Source: an uncultured virus (IMG/VR IMGVR_UViG_3300030616_000579)
Lineage: Duplodnaviria > Heunggongvirae > Uroviricota > Caudoviricetes
Strand: one strand, 5' to 3'
Virus record (IMG/VR): IMGVR_UViG_3300030616_000579
Length of the DNA stretch: 64,000 bases
A program made the translations under genes and the position numbers. How positions within the stretch are numbered: the first letter of the stretch is position 1; every line of letters begins with the position of its first letter. Below the pieces are notes generated by a model. It saw only the letters and a program-made list of their open reading frames with translations. It was not told the origin of the DNA and ran no database searches. Positions 3,547-52,884 of this stretch are shown here, piece after piece.

Positions 3547-4258
3547 TCCCCCCTAGTATTTTACAATAGAACCGATAATTACATGTTCTGCATCCTTTAT
3601 CAGTCCTAGGTTGTTTTGGAAAATTACATTCCAATATATCATTCAATAATGATTCAACTTCCTTGCCAACTTCCTCCTGTTTTTTATCATTAAATTTTAC
3701 ACATCGCCATTGATTTGGATAGAGAAAAAAGAAATAAAAATGTGTCAATTTTTCTCCGAATTTTGATTCAAACAGTTTCCTATATACATGAGCTTGCATT
3801 CTGTACTCATATGATAGTGTTGCATATCTATTTGTTTTCCAGTCAATAACTTTGTGGTTCTGTAAATCAACATAGTCTATAAACCCATAAAGACCTTCTC
3901 CGTTAATTTCAACCTCTGTGAATGGTTTTGTACCTATTCCATTTGTTATGTTCTTATGTTCCCATTCTGCATGATGTAAGAGACAATCATATGCTTTCCT
4001 CAACTGTTCTGCTGGCAATGTCAAATCCCATTGTTCCTTCAATGCACCATATGATTTTATCAGTATATCATCAACCGTTCCTTCTGATACATAATAATGT
4101 CTGTAGTACTCATCAATTGCATCGTGAACATACCGTCCTACATCAAGTACGTCTTGACTAAAAAACATTGGTTCAGCCAAATCTACATAATGAAGTTTAT
4201 ATGCAAATGGACATCTCCTGTATAAAGATAAACCACTCTGACTAATTCCTCTGTTCAT
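3515..4258 (-). CDS. PD-(D/E)XK nuclease, Cas4/RecB-like with Fe-S cysteines
   Basis: SQSGL...CP, GRYVH, E...GFIDYV...IDWKT, QAHVY, C-terminal CRTCNYRFYC. Confidence 0.85.
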   Translation of the reverse strand: MNRGISQSGLSLYRRCPFAYKLHYVDLAEPMFFSQDVLDVGRYVHDAIDEYYRHYYVSEGTVDDILIKSYGALKEQWDLTLPAEQLRKAYDCLLHHAEWEHKNITNGIGTKPFTEVEINGEGLYGFIDYVDLQNHKVIDWKTNRYATLSYEYRMQAHVYRKLFESKFGEKLTHFYFFFLYPNQWRCVKFNDKKQEEVGKEVESLLNDILECNFPKQPRTDKGCRTCNYRFYCKILGGNEEDVVQEED

Positions 4259-4436
4259 ATTTTTTAGCCCATATCTTAATTTGTTTTAACGCACTAATAT
4301 CATATTTTGGGTTGCACAGTCTTCTATACTCATGATAACAATCTCTGCAACAAAAGTGCAGTTTGTTTTTCGCAATAGACGAGTTTTTCCTAGAAAATTC
4401 CTTGCCACATTTTGGGTTATCACATTTTAAATACAT
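4242..4436 (-). CDS. Treble-clef/TRASH-like zinc finger protein
   Basis: CDNPKCGKEF...HFCCRDC. Confidence 0.65.
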   Translation of the reverse strand: MYLKCDNPKCGKEFSRKNSSIAKNKLHFCCRDCYHEYRRLCNPKYDISALKQIKIWAKKYEQRN

Positions 4437-4539
4437 AGTCCTCCTTCCATAACAAATTTAACAATCAAAGCCAGAATAAAAAATATTGTTAACGTAACAA
4501 CAAATTTGAGTGTTTCATCCCAATTACACATCATATCGT

Positions 4540-4992
4540 TCACATTTTTCCCTCCTTAGGCCATCCAACAACATGCAACAATAGACCTGCAACACCTCCT
4601 ATACCTATGCCAAGATGTTCGATATATACACCATATACAAGAATGACGACAGATAAAGGCACCAAAAAAACATATGGAAACAACCCAATCTTTCTTCTGT
4701 CTTCCATAAATTTTTTCCTAGAACTATGATGACTGATTTCAAATCCCATCATTATTTTTGTGCGATACCACTTTGGTGTATATCCAAGTCTAATGGCTTC
4801 ATAATAATGCAAGAACTCGTGTGTAAATCCTATAGCTAATGCAATAATTATTGCAATCAACGTGTTTATAACGATAGGAATTTCAAAATACCGTTCTATA
4901 GAAAACACAACTAACATTAGTATACACAAAATAATTATTGATTTTGTAACCCATTGTTTAATACCCAGTTTGGTCTCCTCTTCCTCACTCAA
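4540..4992 (-). CDS. Membrane zincin-like metalloprotease (DUF3267/M50-like)
   Basis: HEFLH at the end of a TM helix; about four hydrophobic segments. Confidence 0.6.
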   Translation of the reverse strand: MSEEEETKLGIKQWVTKSIIILCILMLVVFSIERYFEIPIVINTLIAIIIALAIGFTHEFLHYYEAIRLGYTPKWYRTKIMMGFEISHHSSRKKFMEDRRKIGLFPYVFLVPLSVVILVYGVYIEHLGIGIGGVAGLLLHVVGWPKEGKM

Positions 4993-5006
4993 TGTTTCTC
5001 ACCACC

Positions 5007-5978
5007 TTATTCATATTGTTGTATTAAATATACCATATATGTCTTCAGTTGAATATATGGACTTGCACCCATTGAAATCCTAAATTCCACATCACCAAGT
5101 TTTGATAATGCATTCAACTTTGCTTTCATCGGGAGTGTTTTGGAACTCTTTATCAATCGTTCCAACGACTCAAGTATTTCTGTTGGTTCATACACGTTAA
5201 CATTTAACAATTTATTAACTTGTTTATCAACAGCATCAAGGTCTCCTTTTTTGATACCTATTAACAATGTACGAACAAAATCATCATTAACATAACTAGT
5301 AACTTCATAAATTTTCTCATCATCTATATCTGTAACACCAGACAACTTCAATGTATTCAACGTATTCAATGCTCTTCGCATAGAACCATTTGATAACGCA
5401 CACAAAGTAGAAACAGCAGAACTAGTAATATCTATTCCCTCTTTCTGTACAACCTGGTTAACCATCGGTATCATTTCATTTGTATTAATTGCACGAAACC
5501 GAAATACAACACACCTATCAATAATCGGGTCTATAACTTTATGTGGATAATTACAACTAATAATAAATCTGCACTTATCAGAATTCATCTCTATAACTCT
5601 TCGTAAAGCATTTTGTGCTGGCGGAGTAATTGAATCAGCCTCGTCAAGAAAAATAATTTTGAACTCATGTCCTATAATCTTAACACGTGCATACCCTTTT
5701 ACTCTCTCACGAACAGTGTCAATACCTCTATCATCTGATGCATTGATTTCTATAAAGAACTGTCTCCAATTTTCACCGTACAACTCTCTTGCAAGTGCCT
5801 TTGCTGTCGTTGTCTTCCCTGTTCCAGGTGGGCCACTAAACAACATATGCGGTACGTTCTTATTCTCAACAAACTTTTTGATGTATGAAAGAATATGGTT
5901 CTGTCCTACTATTGAATCCAATGTTTTTGGACGATATTTTTCTGCAAGAACAGATACATCAGTAGTACTCATATTCAT
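5007..5978 (-). CDS. rfcS: Replication factor C small subunit (clamp loader)
   Basis: EKYRPKTL, GPPGTGKT, EINASDDRGID, LDEAD, AQNALRR, DRC (SRC variant). Confidence 0.95.
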   Translation of the reverse strand: MNMSTTDVSVLAEKYRPKTLDSIVGQNHILSYIKKFVENKNVPHMLFSGPPGTGKTTTAKALARELYGENWRQFFIEINASDDRGIDTVRERVKGYARVKIIGHEFKIIFLDEADSITPPAQNALRRVIEMNSDKCRFIISCNYPHKVIDPIIDRCVVFRFRAINTNEMIPMVNQVVQKEGIDITSSAVSTLCALSNGSMRRALNTLNTLKLSGVTDIDDEKIYEVTSYVNDDFVRTLLIGIKKGDLDAVDKQVNKLLNVNVYEPTEILESLERLIKSSKTLPMKAKLNALSKLGDVEFRISMGASPYIQLKTYMVYLIQQYE

Positions 5979-6159
5979 CCCTGAAAAAGCGTTTTAAAAT
6001 ATAGTATGATGACAAAATAGCAATATACCCCAATGCAATAATGATAAATCCTGCACTCTGGAGAAACACAATTAAGTTTTTGCTTATCACTAAACCAACT
6101 ATCGTTATGATAGTCCATATAAAAAACAATATTAACATTACACCTCCAAACATATTCAT
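5959..6159 (-). CDS. Small two-TM membrane protein
   Basis: Two hydrophobic segments; co-oriented. Confidence 0.5.
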   Translation of the reverse strand: MNMFGGVMLILFFIWTIITIVGLVISKNLIVFLQSAGFIIIALGYIAILSSYYILKRFFRDEYEYY

Positions 6160-36897: not shown

Positions 36898-37935
36898 CTA
36901 TATCTCCCAGTTTTGGTCTGATGTTTCCTCTTTCGGCTTTTCTTCTTTTTTCTCTGCAGTCTCCTCTTTCTTTTCTGGAGGAGTAATCTGCGTTTCAGTT
37001 TCCAGTTCTATCATTGGTGTCTGTTTATATCCACGAGTATCCAGTTCCTCTAGTGATTTCCTGTGTACAGCATATCCGTTTTTTCCAGTGATTTCTGTCT
37101 TTCCATATAACCGTTTGTACCCTGTCAACTTATATGGTCTTATAAAAAACTGGTTACCTTTATGTGATAAATAAAGAATCGTATCAACACGGTGCATGTT
37201 GTCCTTTTCACCTGCAGGTCTATATCCTAAATCAAAGAAAATTGAGTCCTTGTTTCCTTCTTCTTTAATCTCTGCAGTGAATACAATATTGAATGGCATC
37301 CGTTTTATTTTATCAATCCAATTAAAATTATGGAAATATTTGATAATTGTCCAGTCACCCCATCCTTCTAATGCACGATATGCTGTTGTATCCTCTTTCA
37401 TTGCTTTAACATCTGCACGTTTTTTAGCAAAATACTCACCAAGTGTTTCACCATATGCAAGTCTGCAGTAATAATCCTGTACTGATTTCCAAGAGTCCTC
37501 CAGAAGTTCAATCACTAACCATCCAAGTTTTCCTGTTTTCTTCCTGTGTTCTTGAAGTTTTTGTTCAGCGATTGCTGTTGATGATACTAACTCCTCATAT
37601 GTATTAATCGGAAATACAAGTATATTCTCCTTATAATCATCAGGTATAGCATTCATTAGTTTCGTTATACCTGTTGGTCTATCTGGATAAATAATACACA
37701 TCAACAATTCTTCTTTTTTTATTCCTTTACTTTTCAAATACGCAAGTATGCTTAAATAAAACGATGTTTTTCCTGTGTTCGATTCACCAAACGCTATCAT
37801 TTTCTCTGTATCAGCAATCTCACTTGCGTACTGTTTGATGGTCAACGGTTTGACCAAATCCTGCTTCCATAAATCCTTCGGTTTCTGAGAAACCGTCTCC
37901 TTCTTAACTATCACACACTCACCCTTAAATTTCAA
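36898..37935 (-). CDS. RecA-like/AAA_24 (Sak4-like) P-loop ATPase (start probably GTG 37914)
   Basis: FGESNTGKT, WLVIE Walker B, IVFTAE; acidic tail. Confidence 0.7.
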   Translation of the reverse strand: MKFKGECVIVKKETVSQKPKDLWKQDLVKPLTIKQYASEIADTEKMIAFGESNTGKTSFYLSILAYLKSKGIKKEELLMCIIYPDRPTGITKLMNAIPDDYKENILVFPINTYEELVSSTAIAEQKLQEHRKKTGKLGWLVIELLEDSWKSVQDYYCRLAYGETLGEYFAKKRADVKAMKEDTTAYRALEGWGDWTIIKYFHNFNWIDKIKRMPFNIVFTAEIKEEGNKDSIFFDLGYRPAGEKDNMHRVDTILYLSHKGNQFFIRPYKLTGYKRLYGKTEITGKNGYAVHRKSLEELDTRGYKQTPMIELETETQITPPEKKEETAEKKEEKPKEETSDQNWEI

Positions 37936-41472: not shown

Positions 41473-42014
41473 TTACTTTCCTCCTTTTCTACAACAAAGA
41501 AAATTGTCTTTGCGTATTTTTTTCGGATTACTTCTTTTACTAGTTTCGCCAATGTCTTATCTTCTGTCTTCACAGTTAACACTTTGTCTTCAAGTGTAAT
41601 AACCGTATTCAAAAGAGGAGACATCCTATCTTTTATACTTACTAAATCGATTTTGTTATCATTAATATATCTATAATATTCTCGGAGAGTATCACTAAAA
41701 GCACAACATTCTGTATATGTCGTATTATTATCATCCAAAATAGGTGTCTTCAAACTATCTGGTAGAAACCATCCTCTCATAAATTTATCTTTTCGTTTTT
41801 CAACTAATTGACGTATCATATACAACCGTTCATTTAATACATCCCATTCCATTTCTGCATTAACAGACTTGCGTTTTTTTATTTTCTTTCGTTTGAAAAA
41901 ATTGCAAGTATACATAACAGAGGATGGTTGTGTTCTAGAAAAATTCTCACATGGATATAATAAACAATCCTTACACGTCACTGGTTTTGCCTCAAAATAT
42001 CTAAAACTTAACAT
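41463..42014 (-). CDS. Hypothetical protein with N-terminal Cys cluster
   Basis: CKDCLLYPC...C. Confidence 0.55.
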   Translation of the reverse strand: MLSFRYFEAKPVTCKDCLLYPCENFSRTQPSSVMYTCNFFKRKKIKKRKSVNAEMEWDVLNERLYMIRQLVEKRKDKFMRGWFLPDSLKTPILDDNNTTYTECCAFSDTLREYYRYINDNKIDLVSIKDRMSPLLNTVITLEDKVLTVKTEDKTLAKLVKEVIRKKYAKTIFFVVEKEESKWI

Positions 42015-42331
42015 TTCATTTTCTCCCTTGTTTCTTCTATAAATTGTTTAATATATGGGTCATCTACTTCCTTATCTTTGAAATATTCATACAACGATAG
42101 TCGTTGAGAAACACAAAAATGGTCTTCTTCACAATTTGCACCTTTATGTGCTAACCATAAGATACGAATCATTATATCCTTTGGCATTGTGAATTCACTA
42201 TATCTATATACTCCTTTGATACATTTAACAATTGCACCTTTTGTTGATATGTCATGATTTTTTGTTATTTCGTTTTCATCATCTATTACTATCCGTACAT
42301 CATCACTTTTCAAATGAATAATTGGTTGCAT
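42008..42331 (-). CDS. Hypothetical protein (probably leaderless)
   Basis: ATG 24 nt below a TTTATATA box. Confidence 0.6.
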   Translation of the reverse strand: MQPIIHLKSDDVRIVIDDENEITKNHDISTKGAIVKCIKGVYRYSEFTMPKDIMIRILWLAHKGANCEEDHFCVSQRLSLYEYFKDKEVDDPYIKQFIEETREKMKC

Positions 42332-42354: not shown

Positions 42355-42385
42355 TATATAAATATAATCTAAAATTTAATACTTT
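42355..42385 (-). promoter_or_regulatory. Bipartite promoter AAAGTATTAAATTT-N9-TTTATATA
   Basis: Same motif and spacing as 47338-47368 and 48592-48622. Confidence 0.65.
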
Positions 42386-42459
42386 TTTACTTACCGTGTT
42401 TTTTATTAAAATTTAAGGTTTTTAGAGATTTCCCCTGTTCCTTTAATTTATGAGTTATA

Positions 42460-42533
42460 GGAGTTACGGTGTTATAGCAACGTAGCCAACCGTAACCCCA
42501 ACGTCTCCACGCCTTCTTGGAATATGGCTACCC
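42460..42533 (-). ncRNA. Candidate pseudoknotted RNA
   Basis: 11-bp stem GGGGUUACGGU/ACCGUAACUCC, whose loop UGGCUAC pairs with upstream GUAGCCA; small GGCGU/ACGUU hairpin; wobbles favour the minus strand. Confidence 0.45.
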
Positions 42534-43149
42534 TAAGATTTTAATTTATGTTTGTGGAATGAGTAATAGGCAATGCACAAGGATTTTTTCCATAATAACC
42601 TACCACTCATTTTTCCACCACTTTTAATTTAAGTTTAAATACTACCATTCCTTTTTTCACATCAACTGATACAAGATTTTCATCAAAATCAACTACAAAT
42701 GTTTCCTTATCATCATAAAATGAATTAAGAACATTATCATCATCTATTGATTTCATTTCCCTTACCTCCTAATTTATAATATCCAATTAAATAATATATA
42801 CATTCCAATTCCAAATGATATACTAAAACCCAATACAAATCCTAATATTTGCAATTGCAAATCAGTCATATACAATTCCATTTCCCTTATCACCACATTA
42901 CAGGTTTTTCCTACGATAATAACAGGTTATTGTTTTAATCCACATATTTCACAACGGAACATTATACCATCCCATGTGAAATTATGTTTACATTTAGTTT
43001 CCATTCTTATTCATCTCCATCTACAATTACAGGTTTATCTTTTCTTGCATCCAGAACAAAGCCAAAGTAAATGTCCATGACTTCGCACTCGTTCAACTGT
43101 CGTTCTCATACGACAAAACTCACATCTTCCAGATTTCTTTTTTCCCATT

Positions 43150-43338
43150 TTATTTTCCTCCATCTACTTTTACAGGGTTTATTTCGTTTACATGAATATC
43201 CATGACATACATTGCATTAGCAAATGTTAAATGTAACACTAATTTTTGGTAATGGTCTATGTGTTCTGCCTTATGCAATTTATCTATGTCTTCAAATATT
43301 CTTATTCTTAATTCATCAACTATATCGTTTTTTACCAT
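43150..43338 (-). CDS. Small hypothetical protein in the micro-ORF array
   Basis: ORF track; follows the motif copy at 43360. Confidence 0.5.
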   Translation of the reverse strand: MVKNDIVDELRIRIFEDIDKLHKAEHIDHYQKLVLHLTFANAMYVMDIHVNEINPVKVDGGK

Positions 43339-43719
43339 CCTTTCACAAACTCCTTCATCTTTAATTTATGACATCAACAAATCCCACCATAATGCTTTAA
43401 TAATCAAACCTACAACCACTATGAGAAATATTATCATTCCAACCAATACTATATCCATTTTAACCCTCCATTTTTAATTTAGTCCTCATGCTTAAATGAT
43501 ACATGACATTCACCATCTGGATAATAACTAATTGTATATTCGATAATCTTTCCACATTTAGGACATGTTGTTTTTTTATCTTCCCAGTAATCAACCATTC
43601 CCATTATTTCACCGATGATTTTAATTTATCTTTAATAATTATATAACATACATATGGAAACAAAAATACACCCACAACAATCGACATTAATTTTTCATCC
43701 ATTTCCATCACATTTTAAT

Positions 43720-43875
43720 TTACAATCTATAAAACACACCTTCTCTCAACTTATTTTTACATTTAATTATTAAATCATAAATATAAAACAAAGAAACCAT
43801 AATCATCATCATTGATAGACCAAACAAAAATGTATATCCAGCAATCATTAAAGCCAATTCAATCAACATTTCCAT
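43720..43875 (-). CDS. 51-aa single-TM microprotein
   Basis: MEMLIELALMIAGYTFLFGLSMMMIMVSLFYIYDLIIKCKNKLREGVFYRL; stop is the TAA of the repeat motif. Confidence 0.55.
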   Translation of the reverse strand: MEMLIELALMIAGYTFLFGLSMMMIMVSLFYIYDLIIKCKNKLREGVFYRL

Positions 43876-43899
43876 TACCTTTTAATTTAAGTTGTAGAG

Positions 43900-43966
43900 G
43901 ACAGGTGCATATAAAAGGAAGTGAAATTGACATGATTTGAATGGAAATCATATATATACACCTGTC
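43900..43966 (-). ncRNA. Candidate antisense sRNA hairpin
   Basis: 14-bp stem GACAGGUGUAUAUA/UAUAUGCACCUGUC enclosing UUUCCAUUCAAAUCA, complementary to the MoxR and VWA start regions. Confidence 0.5.
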
Positions 43967-43975
43967 TTTCTCCAC

Positions 43976-44281
43976 TTATGATGACCTAGGTAAATGAAAG
44001 ATATCATACATACCATATTCACTTACCGATGACCACCCTAATTTCTTTTTACCCGTTTCATCATAAATCTTTTTGATTCGTGGTTGTCTGTATTTTGTTT
44101 TCTTCTGTAAATGATATAGAGCTTGACCAACTTTATCATTTAGATTTTTTGTTTTTGGAAACTGTTTCTTTACTTCTGTCACAATCTGTTTTTTAGTGAT
44201 ATATTGCAAACCATTTAACTTACTTTGTTTGATAATCTCCAACACCAAGTCTTGCATACCTACTTGATACTTTTTTGTCAT
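43976..44281 (-). CDS. Basic winged-helix-like protein
   Basis: ITKKQIVTEV...VGQALYHL; GGAGG RBS. Confidence 0.55.
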   Translation of the reverse strand: MTKKYQVGMQDLVLEIIKQSKLNGLQYITKKQIVTEVKKQFPKTKNLNDKVGQALYHLQKKTKYRQPRIKKIYDETGKKKLGWSSVSEYGMYDIFHLPRSS

Positions 44282-48639: not shown

Positions 48640-49146
48640 CTATGATTTTCTTGTTTTTTCCTCAAGAGATACCCTATGTCCAGTTACTTCTTCTCGCACT
48701 GGTGCTTCTCTACTCATATGTAATGCTTCTTCCTGAGTATAAGTTTTTGTATACCAGATTTTTTCCAGTATCATTTTCCAAATGGTTTTAAATTCAACTT
48801 TAAAAAAAGTACCAGATGCTTTATCCTCAAGAAAAAAATGTTTTCCTTTAACACCAATACTCTCCTCAGCAAACCCACTCACAAAATTACCAAGGTTCCC
48901 ATACGGTATCACACCCCATCCCTTTATTGGAAATGAAAATCTATACTGTCCATGTGATAATACAGCAAAGTCAAACAAATCAGTAAAGTAATCAAACTCC
49001 TCTTCGTCTTTGATGCCCTCATTGTCTTTTATTTTTTTGCGAATAAACTTCCTCAACAGACGGATACTTTTGGAGACATCATTATATGTCATCCGTTCTT
49101 GTCGTGGTTTCCATCGTTGTTTAGGCATCATCGTCATTGCTATCAT
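48640..49146 (-). CDS. Hypothetical protein
   Basis: Co-oriented, overlaps the ATPase end. Confidence 0.55.
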   Translation of the reverse strand: MIAMTMMPKQRWKPRQERMTYNDVSKSIRLLRKFIRKKIKDNEGIKDEEEFDYFTDLFDFAVLSHGQYRFSFPIKGWGVIPYGNLGNFVSGFAEESIGVKGKHFFLEDKASGTFFKVEFKTIWKMILEKIWYTKTYTQEEALHMSREAPVREEVTGHRVSLEEKTRKS

Positions 49147-49996
49147 CTATGGAATGATAATCTGGTTTTTGTAATATATGTGCTTCAATACTATATTTTG
49201 GATTAGGTTTAAAAATATCAGTAAATGTAATCAATCCAAAATCACCAAACCGTGATATATATGCATCGTTTCCATGATGTTCGTTTCCAACCAAATTATC
49301 TATAGCCTTTTGTGTTACTCGACAATGTTTATCAGCCATAGCACCAGGTAAAAAGATTCGGAACATAAACTTGTCACGTACTCTCCAATCCATATCTCGT
49401 ACTGACTGTGTGTTTGTAATAACTTTCAACATACACTTTCGGATATCTTTAGAAAACACAGAGAACTGTCCTATCTTCTTGTGCATCGCACCTGAAGTAT
49501 CACTTGGTATTACTTCACCTATTTCATCAAAATAGACATGACACCACTCTCCAACGTGCCTTAGGTGTTCAACAAACCGCATCCATTCTGTTCTATCACC
49601 AAAGAATACAACATTGATATAACCAGGTAATGCTTTATTCCATAAATCATCAAAATCATCGAAATATGTTTCCTTTAAATGTGTTTGTTCTAAATGTTTG
49701 TGTCTATCTCGAAAGACAACCTTTGACCCCTTCTTTACATAGAAACGAATCTTATCTAAGTTTTTTGTTTTGAAACACTGCAGTGGTGCATCATATGTCT
49801 CACTCAAAAACAACTTTTGGTTTGGAAACATCTGTAACGTGTACTCTATCATAAAAAACATTGCAGATGTCTTTCCTCCACCTTGAGCGCCAGTAATATA
49901 ACAGAACGCACCACCATAATCTGCTTTCTGAGATAATAGAAAATTAAGAAGTCGTTGCCCAATAATTTCTGGTTTTGACGGCATCTCAGACCTCAA
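49121..49996 (-). CDS. FtsK/HerA-superfamily (A32/Zot-like) genome packaging or morphogenesis ATPase
   Basis: ITGAQGGGKT, VYFDE, RK...ITNTQ...DWRVR. Confidence 0.7.
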   Translation of the reverse strand: MRSEMPSKPEIIGQRLLNFLLSQKADYGGAFCYITGAQGGGKTSAMFFMIEYTLQMFPNQKLFLSETYDAPLQCFKTKNLDKIRFYVKKGSKVVFRDRHKHLEQTHLKETYFDDFDDLWNKALPGYINVVFFGDRTEWMRFVEHLRHVGEWCHVYFDEIGEVIPSDTSGAMHKKIGQFSVFSKDIRKCMLKVITNTQSVRDMDWRVRDKFMFRIFLPGAMADKHCRVTQKAIDNLVGNEHHGNDAYISRFGDFGLITFTDIFKPNPKYSIEAHILQKPDYHSIDDSNDDDA

Positions 49997-50498
49997 ACTT
50001 TTCTTGTTTTGTTGGTTTTACTGAAAGATGAGGTTTCTTTTCTTCTTGAGGTTCTTCTACTATTTCAGGTTCCTCAATTTCTTTTTGTTCTGGTTGACTT
50101 GAAAAACCACCCAGGACTATATTTCGTTTCGGCATCAAATTATGTTGTTGCATAATATCGATAATTAATTCCTCATATACTTCTCGATACTCCCATAACA
50201 CAACATAACTTTCTTTGTTGAAAATAGAATCAGCATCAATCTGGTCTTTAGCGTGATTTGCTTTTTGTTTAACTCGATATAGTTCCTCTTCAAGTTCAGA
50301 ATCCATTTCGTCCTTCTCTCGCATTAACTGTTGATATGCATCAGGAACAGCACGTAAAAGAATTTCAATACTTTTAGCAATCTCATCGAAAACAGCATCG
50401 TTTCTACTTTCTCTCGTTAATTGTAATGTTTCAAATTTTGATAGTAATATATCTTCCAATGTTTTATGTGTTCTTTCTCTCTCCTCTGGTTGTGCCAT
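49986..50498 (-). CDS. Acidic helical protein
   Basis: E-rich; ends KFEV. Confidence 0.6.
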   Translation of the reverse strand: MAQPEERERTHKTLEDILLSKFETLQLTRESRNDAVFDEIAKSIEILLRAVPDAYQQLMREKDEMDSELEEELYRVKQKANHAKDQIDADSIFNKESYVVLWEYREVYEELIIDIMQQHNLMPKRNIVLGGFSSQPEQKEIEEPEIVEEPQEEKKPHLSVKPTKQEKFEV

Positions 50499-50703
50499 TT
50501 TTATTATACCTCCTTTGAATAATAAACAAAACTACTACTGATATCACAACAATAACAAACGCTGGCAATGGTTGTGCAGTTGGAACTTGTGTTTCCAGAC
50601 CACCAAAATCTGTATCCTCAACATTGACAATAATAAAAGTATACACACCAACTAATAGAGTTATAACAACATATACTATAAGGGCAATCGTTCCTACTTT
50701 CAT
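50464..50703 (-). CDS. Small two-TM protein, candidate virion membrane or coat protein
   Basis: Two hydrophobic helices, basic C-terminus. Confidence 0.55.
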   Translation of the reverse strand: MKVGTIALIVYVVITLLVGVYTFIIVNVEDTDFGGLETQVPTAQPLPAFVIVVISVVVLFIIQRRYNKNGTTRGERKNT

Positions 50704-51053
50704 CCTTTCACCGCTGTTAGATTACAAACTGTTATGTTTGTAGATATCGAAAAAGAAATCCATCCTATTCTATAACATGAATATACCGTACCAGGAAACA
50801 CAACACCAATAACAAGAATAGAAATAATCTTCAAAACTACAGATGTCATCGGTTTCTCACCAGACATTGCATCTGACATCGACCATAAGAAAACACTTAT
50901 CATAACATAGAACGCAAATATACCTACAATTACAAACGATGATAGTGTTCCTTCTACAGACATCATTTTTTCTTTTTCCTTTCCACTAAGTTTTGAACTC
51001 GTTCTGTATCTCTTTTTTTCATCTGTTTCCCTTTTTCTGCACCCTGGTTCCAC
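50700..51053 (-). CDS. Small two-TM protein (start uncertain)
   Basis: Two hydrophobic helices, NIT and NLT sequons. Confidence 0.55.
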   Translation of the reverse strand: MEPGCRKRETDEKKRYRTSSKLSGKEKEKMMSVEGTLSSFVIVGIFAFYVMISVFLWSMSDAMSGEKPMTSVVLKIISILVIGVVFPGTVYSCYRIGWISFSISTNITVCNLTAVKG

Positions 51054-51084
51054 ATTGCTTTCAAATACTCAACAACCCAACCCA

Positions 51085-51564
51085 TTAGATACCAGCCTGA
51101 AATGATTGCATTATTTGTGGCATAAAGAATATAAACAAAATTCCTAAAACAGCCATACCAACAGCAAACAAAATAATCAATATTGTTTTTGAGTTAACTT
51201 TTAGAGAACCACCGAAACGACCATATCCTTTTACTTCTTCTATCGTCCTTGCATTGTGATATCGCAGAATTGTCTTTATGTTAAAAGGACTGATTCTTAC
51301 AACATAATCCTCTATAGCATGAAGGTCAACTGGTTTCCCACCAATCAACAGTGGAAACGTTCCTTTTGGTGATGGTATCTTTTGTATCTCTTCAAGAATA
51401 GAAAGTGGTGATGTATCCATTGGTTGTTCTTCAGGTTGATAATACTCTTCTTGTGGTTGTTGATATTGCTGTTCTGGAACTGGTTCATAATACGGAAGTT
51501 CCTCTGCATATATTTCATCATAGTCTGATTGAAACCTTTTCTTTAATCTACCCAAAAACATCAC
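51085..51564 (-). CDS. Protein with C-terminal TM anchor
   Basis: Q/E/P/Y-rich N-terminus, one TM. Confidence 0.6.
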   Translation of the reverse strand: MMFLGRLKKRFQSDYDEIYAEELPYYEPVPEQQYQQPQEEYYQPEEQPMDTSPLSILEEIQKIPSPKGTFPLLIGGKPVDLHAIEDYVVRISPFNIKTILRYHNARTIEEVKGYGRFGGSLKVNSKTILIILFAVGMAVLGILFIFFMPQIMQSFQAGI

Positions 51565-52112
51565 CCTAACTCTTGTGGTCTTGCTATATATTCTTTACTT
51601 GGTATTTCCTTTCGTCCTTTGAACAATCCTTTAAACCCATTTTCTCGTGCTTCACGCAGACTTGCAAATCCCCATTTTGTCTTTAACAACCCTGTATACA
51701 AACACAAGTCAAGGTCAACAGAATGCCCTATACCTTCAGGTACAAACCGTATTGAATGGTCAAATAACTTGTAACTCTTGAAATCGTGGATTTGAGCATC
51801 AAGTTCTTTACTGTACAACTGTCCTTCAACTTCACGAATTGATGGTGTTATTTTTACTGTACCATCACGATAAACATAAAACCATATCAGGTTTCCTGGT
51901 CTTCCAAACTCCAAAATATGTCCTGCACCTGTCTTTGATGCTCTTGAATGAACCAATGATATGCCAACAAATGTTATCACCAATCCAATAAAAAACATTC
52001 CAAATCGTAGCCAGTCTGGTATGGCAAATTGTTGTTGTAAAGGCAACAATCCAACAATACCAGCCATTACAATACCAAAAAACACCATCATGTATACAAG
52101 AAAAAATATCAC
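51561..52112 (-). CDS. Two-TM protein with soluble C-terminal domain
   Basis: Overlapping start and stop with neighbours. Confidence 0.6.
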   Translation of the reverse strand: MIFFLVYMMVFFGIVMAGIVGLLPLQQQFAIPDWLRFGMFFIGLVITFVGISLVHSRASKTGAGHILEFGRPGNLIWFYVYRDGTVKITPSIREVEGQLYSKELDAQIHDFKSYKLFDHSIRFVPEGIGHSVDLDLCLYTGLLKTKWGFASLREARENGFKGLFKGRKEIPSKEYIARPQELG

Positions 52113-52561
52113 TCAATTTCCTCCCATTCTTCTCTGTCTTTTCTAAATGCTGAACCAACTCTTCCCATAATTGTCTTCTTTCGTTTCCTTGCAAGAACCC
52201 GCTGAATTGATTCCGATTTGTCAATTCCACGACCATACAACGTGTAGAACCCATCAACACTGCGACTGCACTGAATCTTCATTAACTCTTTTCCCATCAT
52301 CTGTCGTGCTTCTTCATATAATCCTATTTCTAACAACATACAGATTTCTTCAAAAGCAAGAATAAGAGGAAAAACATCCTGTCGTTTGATGTTTCCCAAA
52401 GCCATAATCTTAGAGAACATCAAATAGAACTTTTCAAAATACCGTCTCTCCTTTAATGGAATATCAGGAGATAGCATAAACTGTGTAACTGTCAGAGCTG
52501 CATCACGTTCATCAAACTCTTCAGGCGGTCTTCTTGCCTGGTAGTAGTACTCTTCACTCAT
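52109..52561 (-). CDS. Hypothetical protein
   Basis: ATGA overlap with the upstream gene. Confidence 0.6.
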   Translation of the reverse strand: MSEEYYYQARRPPEEFDERDAALTVTQFMLSPDIPLKERRYFEKFYLMFSKIMALGNIKRQDVFPLILAFEEICMLLEIGLYEEARQMMGKELMKIQCSRSVDGFYTLYGRGIDKSESIQRVLARKRKKTIMGRVGSAFRKDREEWEEIE

Positions 52562-52884
52562 TGTGTTTTAATCCTCTTTCGTTCTCGATAGTATAACAAC
52601 GATGTTGATATTGCTAACACACCAGCGAGAATTGGTAGTACTGCACGTATTGATATGTACATTGGTGTTGGTGTTAACGCTATTCCTATCAGAGCAACTG
52701 AAAAAACTATACCCATAATAGAAATAAAAAATACCAATGGTGGTACAACCTCTTTTCTAGGATACATCATCTTTAAAACAGCCTGCCTAAAAAGTTCACT
52801 TCTATTTATTTCCCTATGTTCATCCAACCAAATCTTCATCTTTCTTGGAATAGTAAGATTGATTTGTTCGGTTTCTTCTCCCAT
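52558..52884 (-). CDS. Ribbon-helix-helix domain fused to two TM helices
   Basis: QINLTIPRKMKIWLDEHREINRSELFRQAV followed by two hydrophobic helices. Confidence 0.7.
   Translation of the reverse strand: MGEETEQINLTIPRKMKIWLDEHREINRSELFRQAVLKMMYPRKEVVPPLVFFISIMGIVFSVALIGIALTPTPMYISIRAVLPILAGVLAISTSLLYYRERKRIKTQ

Follow-up and report, generated by a model that had tools for sequence, protein, structure and literature searches.

Layout of the array

The window, meaning the whole stretch of 64,000 nucleotides analysed here, comes from a genome of 135,095 bp (G000) in which nearly all genes lie on the minus strand. Archaeal-type genes are found in it (AglB/STT3, a clamp-loader ATPase, an ERCC4 nuclease and a primase), and the host is likely an archaeon. 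Between two conserved core genes, at a position that we call the slot, lies an array of very short ORFs joined by a nine-base word, TAAATTAAA. As a preliminary description of this DNA had stated, eight exact copies fall within 1.45 kb (42442-43889, minus strand); they are spaced 83-592 bp apart, and six of the eight extend to the ten-base TAAATTAAAA. From the left flank of the slot to the right, followed by two distant genes that enter the argument below, the features are:

43976-44281, minus: conserved core gene left of the slot
43890-43978, minus: left flank, long hairpin (z -6.5), in array-less relatives as well
43881-43889, minus: linker copy 1, the 5′ edge of the array, occupying the TATTAAAA promoter-element position of empty alleles
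43720-43875, minus: cargo ORF, 51 aa, hydrophobic; stop is the TAA of linker 2
43714-43722, minus: linker copy 2
43604-43711, minus: cargo ORF, 35 aa, hydrophobic; linker 3 read through as KLK
43620-43628, minus: linker copy 3
43479-43604, minus: cargo ORF, 41 aa, CxxC; stop is the TAA of linker 4
43473-43481, minus: linker copy 4
43366-43458, minus: cargo ORF, 30 aa, hydrophobic; stop is the TAA of linker 5
43360-43368, minus: linker copy 5
43150-43338, minus: cargo ORF, 62 aa; homologue search found only itself
43035-43163, minus: cargo ORF, 42 aa, two CxxC
42897-43179, minus: block of the second linker family, TAA(A)CCTGT.. plus leader
42927-43004, minus: cargo ORF, 25 aa, Cys-rich
42774-42896, minus: cargo ORF, 40 aa, hydrophobic; stop is the TAA of the variant linker
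42768-42776, minus: variant linker TAAATTAGG, present in relatives L003 and L036 too
42607-42756, minus: cargo ORF, 49 aa; linker 6 read through as KLK; weak PHROG match (E 0.004), function not known
42623-42631, minus: linker copy 6
42533-42610, minus: cargo ORF, 25 aa; linker 7 read through as KLK
42540-42548, minus: linker copy 7
42451-42539, minus: folded unit, non-coding and richer in GC, lying between two linkers (RNA z -3.0); matches no Rfam family
42442-42450, minus: linker copy 8, the 3′ edge of the array, followed by a gene-less leader
42355-42381, minus: right flank, conserved bipartite promoter-like element of gene 42008-42331, TATTAAA-N11-TTTATATA, with a TATA box
42008-42331, minus: conserved core gene right of the slot
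36898-37935, minus: P-loop ATPase, candidate helper; a Sak4-like profile is matched in its family, not by the protein itself
476-1087, minus: small ORF of the tyrosine-recombinase family, 203 aa, not linked to the array

Both readings of the word given in the preliminary description, its TAA as the stop codon of the preceding ORF and its in-frame reading as KLK, are borne out at the ORFs so marked above. The variant copy likewise exists, one base away from the 42769 at which it had been placed. The ten cargo ORFs span 25-62 aa as had been described; by inspection four are hydrophobic, three are Cys-rich and three are neither. None of the ten was matched by Pfam and one was matched, weakly, by PHROGs, while a protein-cluster look-up of eight placed five in singleton clusters and found three absent from the collection. 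Searches of the region for tRNA and Rfam families gave no matches. A second junction motif had also been proposed, and we find it where it was said to be, as AAACCTGTAAT at 42897-42907 and 43026-43036 with a variant at 42918-42928, to which a further variant at 43170-43176 can be added. The two longest copies share 77% over 39 nt, and this second family was not seen in the other arrays described below. Elsewhere in G000, a block that includes an ATPase and membrane proteins occurs twice by inspection (genome 688-4683 and window 48640-52884).

Enrichment of the word

The preliminary description had proposed that the word be compared with Markov and local AT-rich backgrounds, and the enrichment persists under both. 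When the local 1551 bp were shuffled 2000 times at each k-let size from 1 to 5, the count of TAAATTAAA never exceeded 4; any 9-mer at all reached eight copies in 0-7 of 2000 shuffles, a figure that may count overlapping words of low complexity. Markov models trained on the genome at orders 3-6 predict 0.02-0.07 copies, versus the eight observed. Both strands of the whole 135,095-bp genome hold only 17 copies, eight of them in the array, and none of 102 ends of ordinary genes (at least 100 aa) in G000 carries one; the word is therefore array-specific. Seven AT-rich look-alike 9-mers used as controls occur 0-5 times, versus 56 for the word in the same 15 kb.

Anatomy of the junctions

Arrays from the relatives and other viruses treated below allowed junctions to be aligned on the first base of the word (+1). 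Across 52 junctions positions +1 to +7 are fixed (the collecting pattern forces that core), -1 and -2 are free, and 47 junctions have A at +10. Downstream, a Shine-Dalgarno-like AGG is commonest at +15/+16, and most start codons lie at +19 to +31. Position -3 is A or T at 51 of the 52, against 34 of 41 background copies, and this bias together with the sharp left edge of the word hints at a protein footprint. The exact word stands upstream of 39 of 89 array ORF starts versus 0 of 124 core-gene starts. By a heuristic frame call on 60 junctions, the upstream ORF ends at the first TAA in 22 and at the second in 5, stops just before the word in 10 and is read through as KLK in 19, so that many joints are not at a stop. 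The word also borders non-coding units and gene-less leaders. The junctions show no excess of sigma-70-like sites (15 versus 13.8 expected) and no terminators, and their folding is unremarkable (3 of 59 and 2 of 59 segments reach z <= -3; medians -0.3 and -0.1).

The real promoters of the window's family are unlike the linker, having TATTAAA, 11 bases and then a separate TATA box. Their promoter-like element can be written TATTAAA-N11-TTTAWATA, with a TATGGAWA variant in L014, L016, L019, L045 and L049. The ATTAAAA core of the word does match the upstream element of these promoters.

The first word of the window's array comes directly after the conserved hairpin, at the TATTAAAA position of empty alleles. 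In the window (43890-43978), L006 (6450-6545), L007 (3957-4030) and L016 (8150-8262), the same core gene is followed by a long hairpin whose stem has a 3-nt bulge close to the base. These four hairpins differ in sequence (z -4.2 to -6.5) and have no Rfam match; they are possibly a structured RNA or a terminator-like element. We considered the window's hairpin as a cassette and rejected it, as it is an ancestral flank element that array-less relatives also have.

Arrays among relatives

Single-protein scans for relatives gave no matches; alignment of a conserved helicase-like gene yielded 71 loci, of which the 53 of at least 3 kb were screened, and L003, L004, L010, L006 and L016 were compared over 10 kb on each side of the helicase. 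Five of the 53 carry arrays (L003, L004, L010, L011 and L022), each a single cluster of 3-9 same-strand copies, and L036 has two copies plus a variant. Two different slots are occupied within the family. At the window's slot, ten relatives retain both flanks: the word is present in one (L011), other words in one (L014) and none in eight. Three of these eight (L019, L039 and L067) contain other inserts of 0.5-1.2 kb, so the word is not required for change at the slot. The second slot holds arrays in 3 of 16 relatives; three rows with overlapping or reordered flanks are excluded from these slot counts. No exact word is present in the empty slots as a landing site.

Arrays are patchy on a 28-row helicase tree. 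L022 and L036 fall within a clade (support 100/99) with word-less L037 and L039, and the window pairs with the empty L006 (86/93). Between L003, L004 and L010 the flanks are 78-81% identical, the cargo is not shared at all, and homology resumes at the last word, which upholds the earlier proposal that cassettes are bounded by the word. A gene found on its own in these three, with its own promoter, is a whole cassette in L022, where it has the word instead and its natural stop is fused to it; in L004 the lone gene ends TAAATG.

Other words can play the same part. In L014 the window's slot is filled by 5.1 kb joined by other words, among them TCAATGGAAAC, found 7 times versus 0.007 expected, whose copies share 24-34 nt. 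Four such words link the roughly 20 ORFs of this 5-kb array (L014 2930-7800), one of which encodes a methyltransferase. L014 and L010 have one cargo protein in common, 54% identical, which stands under a different word in each. L027 has a row of small ORFs (4150-6030), many of which start M-N-K, with TATGAAT 8 times versus 0.28 expected; this TATGAAT is a start-anchored linker.

Arrays in unrelated viruses

Motif scans of IMG/VR returned 97, 54, 79 and 92 stretches, which were ranked by copy number and the top ones inspected. True arrays among those inspected come from three records, G001 (5 copies), G125 (4) and G004 (7); apart from L073 (below), the other inspected stretches were rejected as tandem repeats, runs of KLK in coding sequence or chance matches in AT-rich DNA. 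All three are tailed viruses (terminase, capsid, portal or tail genes), with completeness of 36% for G001, an estimated 94% for G125 and 68% for G004, and none has a core block in common with the window's family. G001 and G125 agree in their downstream genes and differ in cargo. Among IMG/VR records, L073 (2589-4113) has five word copies, several of them before leaders, and is a candidate array. In L321, L293 and L283, near 3877-4123 on the minus strand, the word lies inside a palindromic AT stretch of a 62-bp tandem repeat, a different feature.

A 94-bp unit is identical (104/104 nt) in L003 and in the tailed virus G001 (locus L223). The match begins with the opening base of one word and stops with the closing base of the next, and the four neighbours of the unit are all different. 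Movement of units exactly at the word, which the preliminary description had asked to see between genomes, is thus observed in one case among 12 compared regions, this being the only full-length nucleotide-identical cassette among them. The unit folds (z -3.4) and could also encode a peptide of 25-27 aa. A 19-nt piece of it has 18 matches in species genomes, bacteria by title, which we judged to be chance, and its likeness to CRISPR repeats is below threshold (E 0.58 and 2.5) and not significant.

Folded, apparently non-coding units are seen in the arrays of L003 (2240-2325 and 3480-3573) and of the window (42451-42539); the L003 unit at 2240 displays in its loop CCTCCTAA, complementary to a Shine-Dalgarno leader. 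Among the array cargo of the tailed viruses are intact DNA methyltransferases, 168-208 aa long. Five such enzymes, drawn from several families, occur as cassettes (L223 1581-2768, L276 2634-3194, L468 1207-1710, L014 5926-6678), which suggests anti-restriction cargo.

How the units may move

An identical word-bounded unit in unrelated viruses, arrays whose cargo differs and the enrichment of the word together establish that the units are real mobile cassettes. Enrichment, array-specificity, different cargo between conserved flanks and one exact shared unit are matters of observation; how the units recombine, the existence of circles, the capture of new genes and the host are our inferences.

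Because the word joins other genes in related and unrelated viruses, with one unit shared, it is likely a point of general recombination and not the site of the element's own integrase. With modest confidence, reasoning from sequence comparison, we propose that short-homology recombination at the stop/leader linker swaps the small units. The linker (TAAATTAAAA plus a short ribosome-binding leader) would offer a short patch of shared sequence where whole units are gained, lost and exchanged by general recombination, the machinery for which probably comes from the host or a co-infecting virus. Exchange between two linkers would move a word-to-word unit, possibly as a small circle. New genes would likely be captured by microhomology, TAA(AT) at the donor stop and the A-rich Shine-Dalgarno/ATG at the start. 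The linker would persist because it ends the upstream frame (with stops in two of three frames) and feeds the next start, and because only units carrying it keep moving. A block would first enter a new virus by chance microhomology, here probably with the ATTAAAA of the promoter element, as the position of the first word at the TATTAAAA site of empty alleles, right after the hairpin, suggests.

Identical or near-identical leaders are found on unrelated ORFs (26/26, 35/35 and 32/34 nt), and a match of 46/53 nt crosses the word from the tail of the previous unit. The shared leaders and the other linker words of one relative lead us to favour short homology rather than an enzyme dedicated to the site. 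For homologous recombination, ten invariant bases make a short match, and the sharp left edge of word conservation, the single full-length identical cassette among the 12 regions, the joints read through as KLK and the word-less changes at the slot also count against the homology account. A possible helper is the P-loop ATPase at 36898-37935, with 4 of 14 members of its family matching Sak4-like single-strand annealing proteins and the window's own protein not doing so; on these profile matches the assignment of the family is weak, and G125 has no homologue of this ATPase. Among 36 scanned ORFs of G125, which is 94% complete, no integrase or annealing protein was found.

The leading alternative, which we regard as possible though unlikely, is a sequence-specific recombinase or nuclease acting in trans, from the host or another element, and excising and inserting units at a fixed point; the system would then be integron-like with a 10-bp unstructured site, serving several virus families of one host. 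The exact word-to-word limits of the 94-bp unit suit such an enzyme, as do the sharp edges of the word with the bias at -3, the same word in three virus groups, and G125, where scans recognised no recombination gene. Set against it are a site with neither symmetry nor fold, leaders that change partners separately from their ORFs, the use of several words in L014 and of a second one in the window, and empty slots that offer no exact word as a landing site. No candidate enzyme was found, and among 118 genomes of one candidate host order, that around a Thermoplasmata bin, we found no spacer-like match and no array (one gap range searched). If a dedicated enzyme does exist, it would represent a new recombinase, one acting on a very short site. 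In the boldest and likewise unlikely form of this reading, an uncultured archaeon or its element would supply a sequence-specific enzyme that recombines the unstructured 10-bp word, with several unrelated virus families of that host sharing one cassette pool of micro-peptides, DNA methyltransferases and small structured RNAs, unlike integrons.

Less probable again is a chiefly regulatory or translational role for the word (as a protein-binding site on DNA or RNA, or a stop-plus-restart), like the start-associated sequences of Cluster K phages; selection would then keep it, while genes are swapped at gene borders anyway. Its fixed place just 5′ of the AGG would fit this, and so would the match of its core to the upstream promoter element; the L014 word likewise shares ATGGAAA with the L014 promoter variant, one case that L027 does not follow. 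Against it, the ends of ordinary G000 genes lack the word, which also flanks non-coding units and gene-less leaders, and real promoters have a separate TATA box. In archaea, a start codon 19-31 nt from the first base of the word is too near for a TATA promoter. A regulatory role can coexist with short-homology exchange.

The preliminary description had suggested capture by the element's own minimal tyrosine recombinase (476-1087), and this now appears very unlikely. The ORF is a genuine member of its family: R61, K146-x-x-R149, H173 and Y182 are invariant in 44 homologues, 18 of the 44 match PF00589, and it aligns with XerD (E 0.005). That alignment, however, has no insertion corresponding to the extra domain specific to IntI, the gene lies 41 kb from the array, and none of 27 homologue loci has three or more same-strand word copies. 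Nor did a search with the family profile, used because a Pfam PF00589 search of the genome misses G000's own recombinase, find a homologue in the three array-bearing tailed viruses G125 (94% complete), G001 and G004, with the G000 control at E 2e-99.

Decayed tandem duplication, AT-rich chance or assembly artefact, to which the AT-richness of the arrays (25-31% GC) might point, is highly improbable and largely refuted, as the local and genome-wide nulls miss by many orders, look-alike AT-rich words stay rare, the units are unrelated and some are intact DNA methyltransferases, and they lie between syntenic flanks in several records.

Comparison with known systems

The attC site of integrons is a single-strand hairpin with RYYYAAC...GTTRRRY ends. 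This core pattern occurs at none of our 59 junctions, and with a median folding z of -0.3 the integron-like mechanism of the preliminary description finds no support; its integron-like organisation does, in the tandem same-orientation short ORFs and the word-to-word unit. Site-to-site movement is seen in the one 104/104-nt case, and leaders also move without ORFs. In integrons and CALINs, archaeal ones among them, an integrase need not adjoin the array (Ghaly 2022, PMC9668308), and short ORFs in tandem, a repeated junction and units that move between arrays are shared features; our array differs in lacking an attC fold or core, attI and an adjacent IntI-type enzyme, and in exchanging leaders apart from ORFs. 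A CRISPR array, with its repeats of about 30 bp and spacers of nearly constant length, is contradicted by the spacing of 83-592 bp and by the lack of any Rfam CRISPR match in the window region.

The intergenic repeats of halovirus HF2 are also AT-rich repeats between genes of an archaeal virus; they are promoters of 29-58 bp whose position is conserved among relatives (Russ 2021, PMC8707807), whereas our word is not a TATA promoter by its spacing and varies in position. Cluster K mycobacteriophages have start-associated sequences (SAS), which resemble the word in being short, asymmetric, one-orientation repeats just upstream of the starts of differing gene families; they are 13 bp, stay with the same gene families across phages and have a function that is still open (Pope 2011, PMC3203893). 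In our case close relatives differ in cargo, and the word, placed 5′ of the Shine-Dalgarno, is confined to a single array in each genome; no cargo is shared among L003, L004 and L010, and one gene has the word only in L022.

The closest likeness is with the PeSL cassettes of T4-type phages, which are intergenic elements running from stop to Shine-Dalgarno/start between non-essential ORFans in hyperplastic regions, composed of a sigma-70 promoter and stem-loop terminators (Arbiol 2010, PMC2839356; Comeau 2014, PMC4122927). Exchange between PeSL repeats swaps whole genes and gives mini-circles, with no integrase invoked (PMC2839356; PMC4122927). Our repeat likewise runs from stop to Shine-Dalgarno/start between variable ORFans that are gained, lost or replaced at it; unlike a PeSL, it has 10 invariant bases and a variable leader of 10-25 nt, no promoter or hairpin, and one identical unit shared across virus families. 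Since it lacks the promoter and stem-loop, the array works most like a PeSL and is not a PeSL member.

In a literature survey at the level of titles and abstract openings, with closed journals and supplements outside it, we found no description of the word or of these viruses. How viruses acquire and reshuffle their many orphan micro-genes is an open question, and here the point of exchange is pinned to ten bases. A tailed virus and a virus family without tails have one unit in common, letter for letter, which shows a cassette pool shared across families. The array belongs with mobile cassettes of repeat-mediated gene shuffling, and is distinguished by its very short invariant core and by the sharing of both word and unit across virus families.
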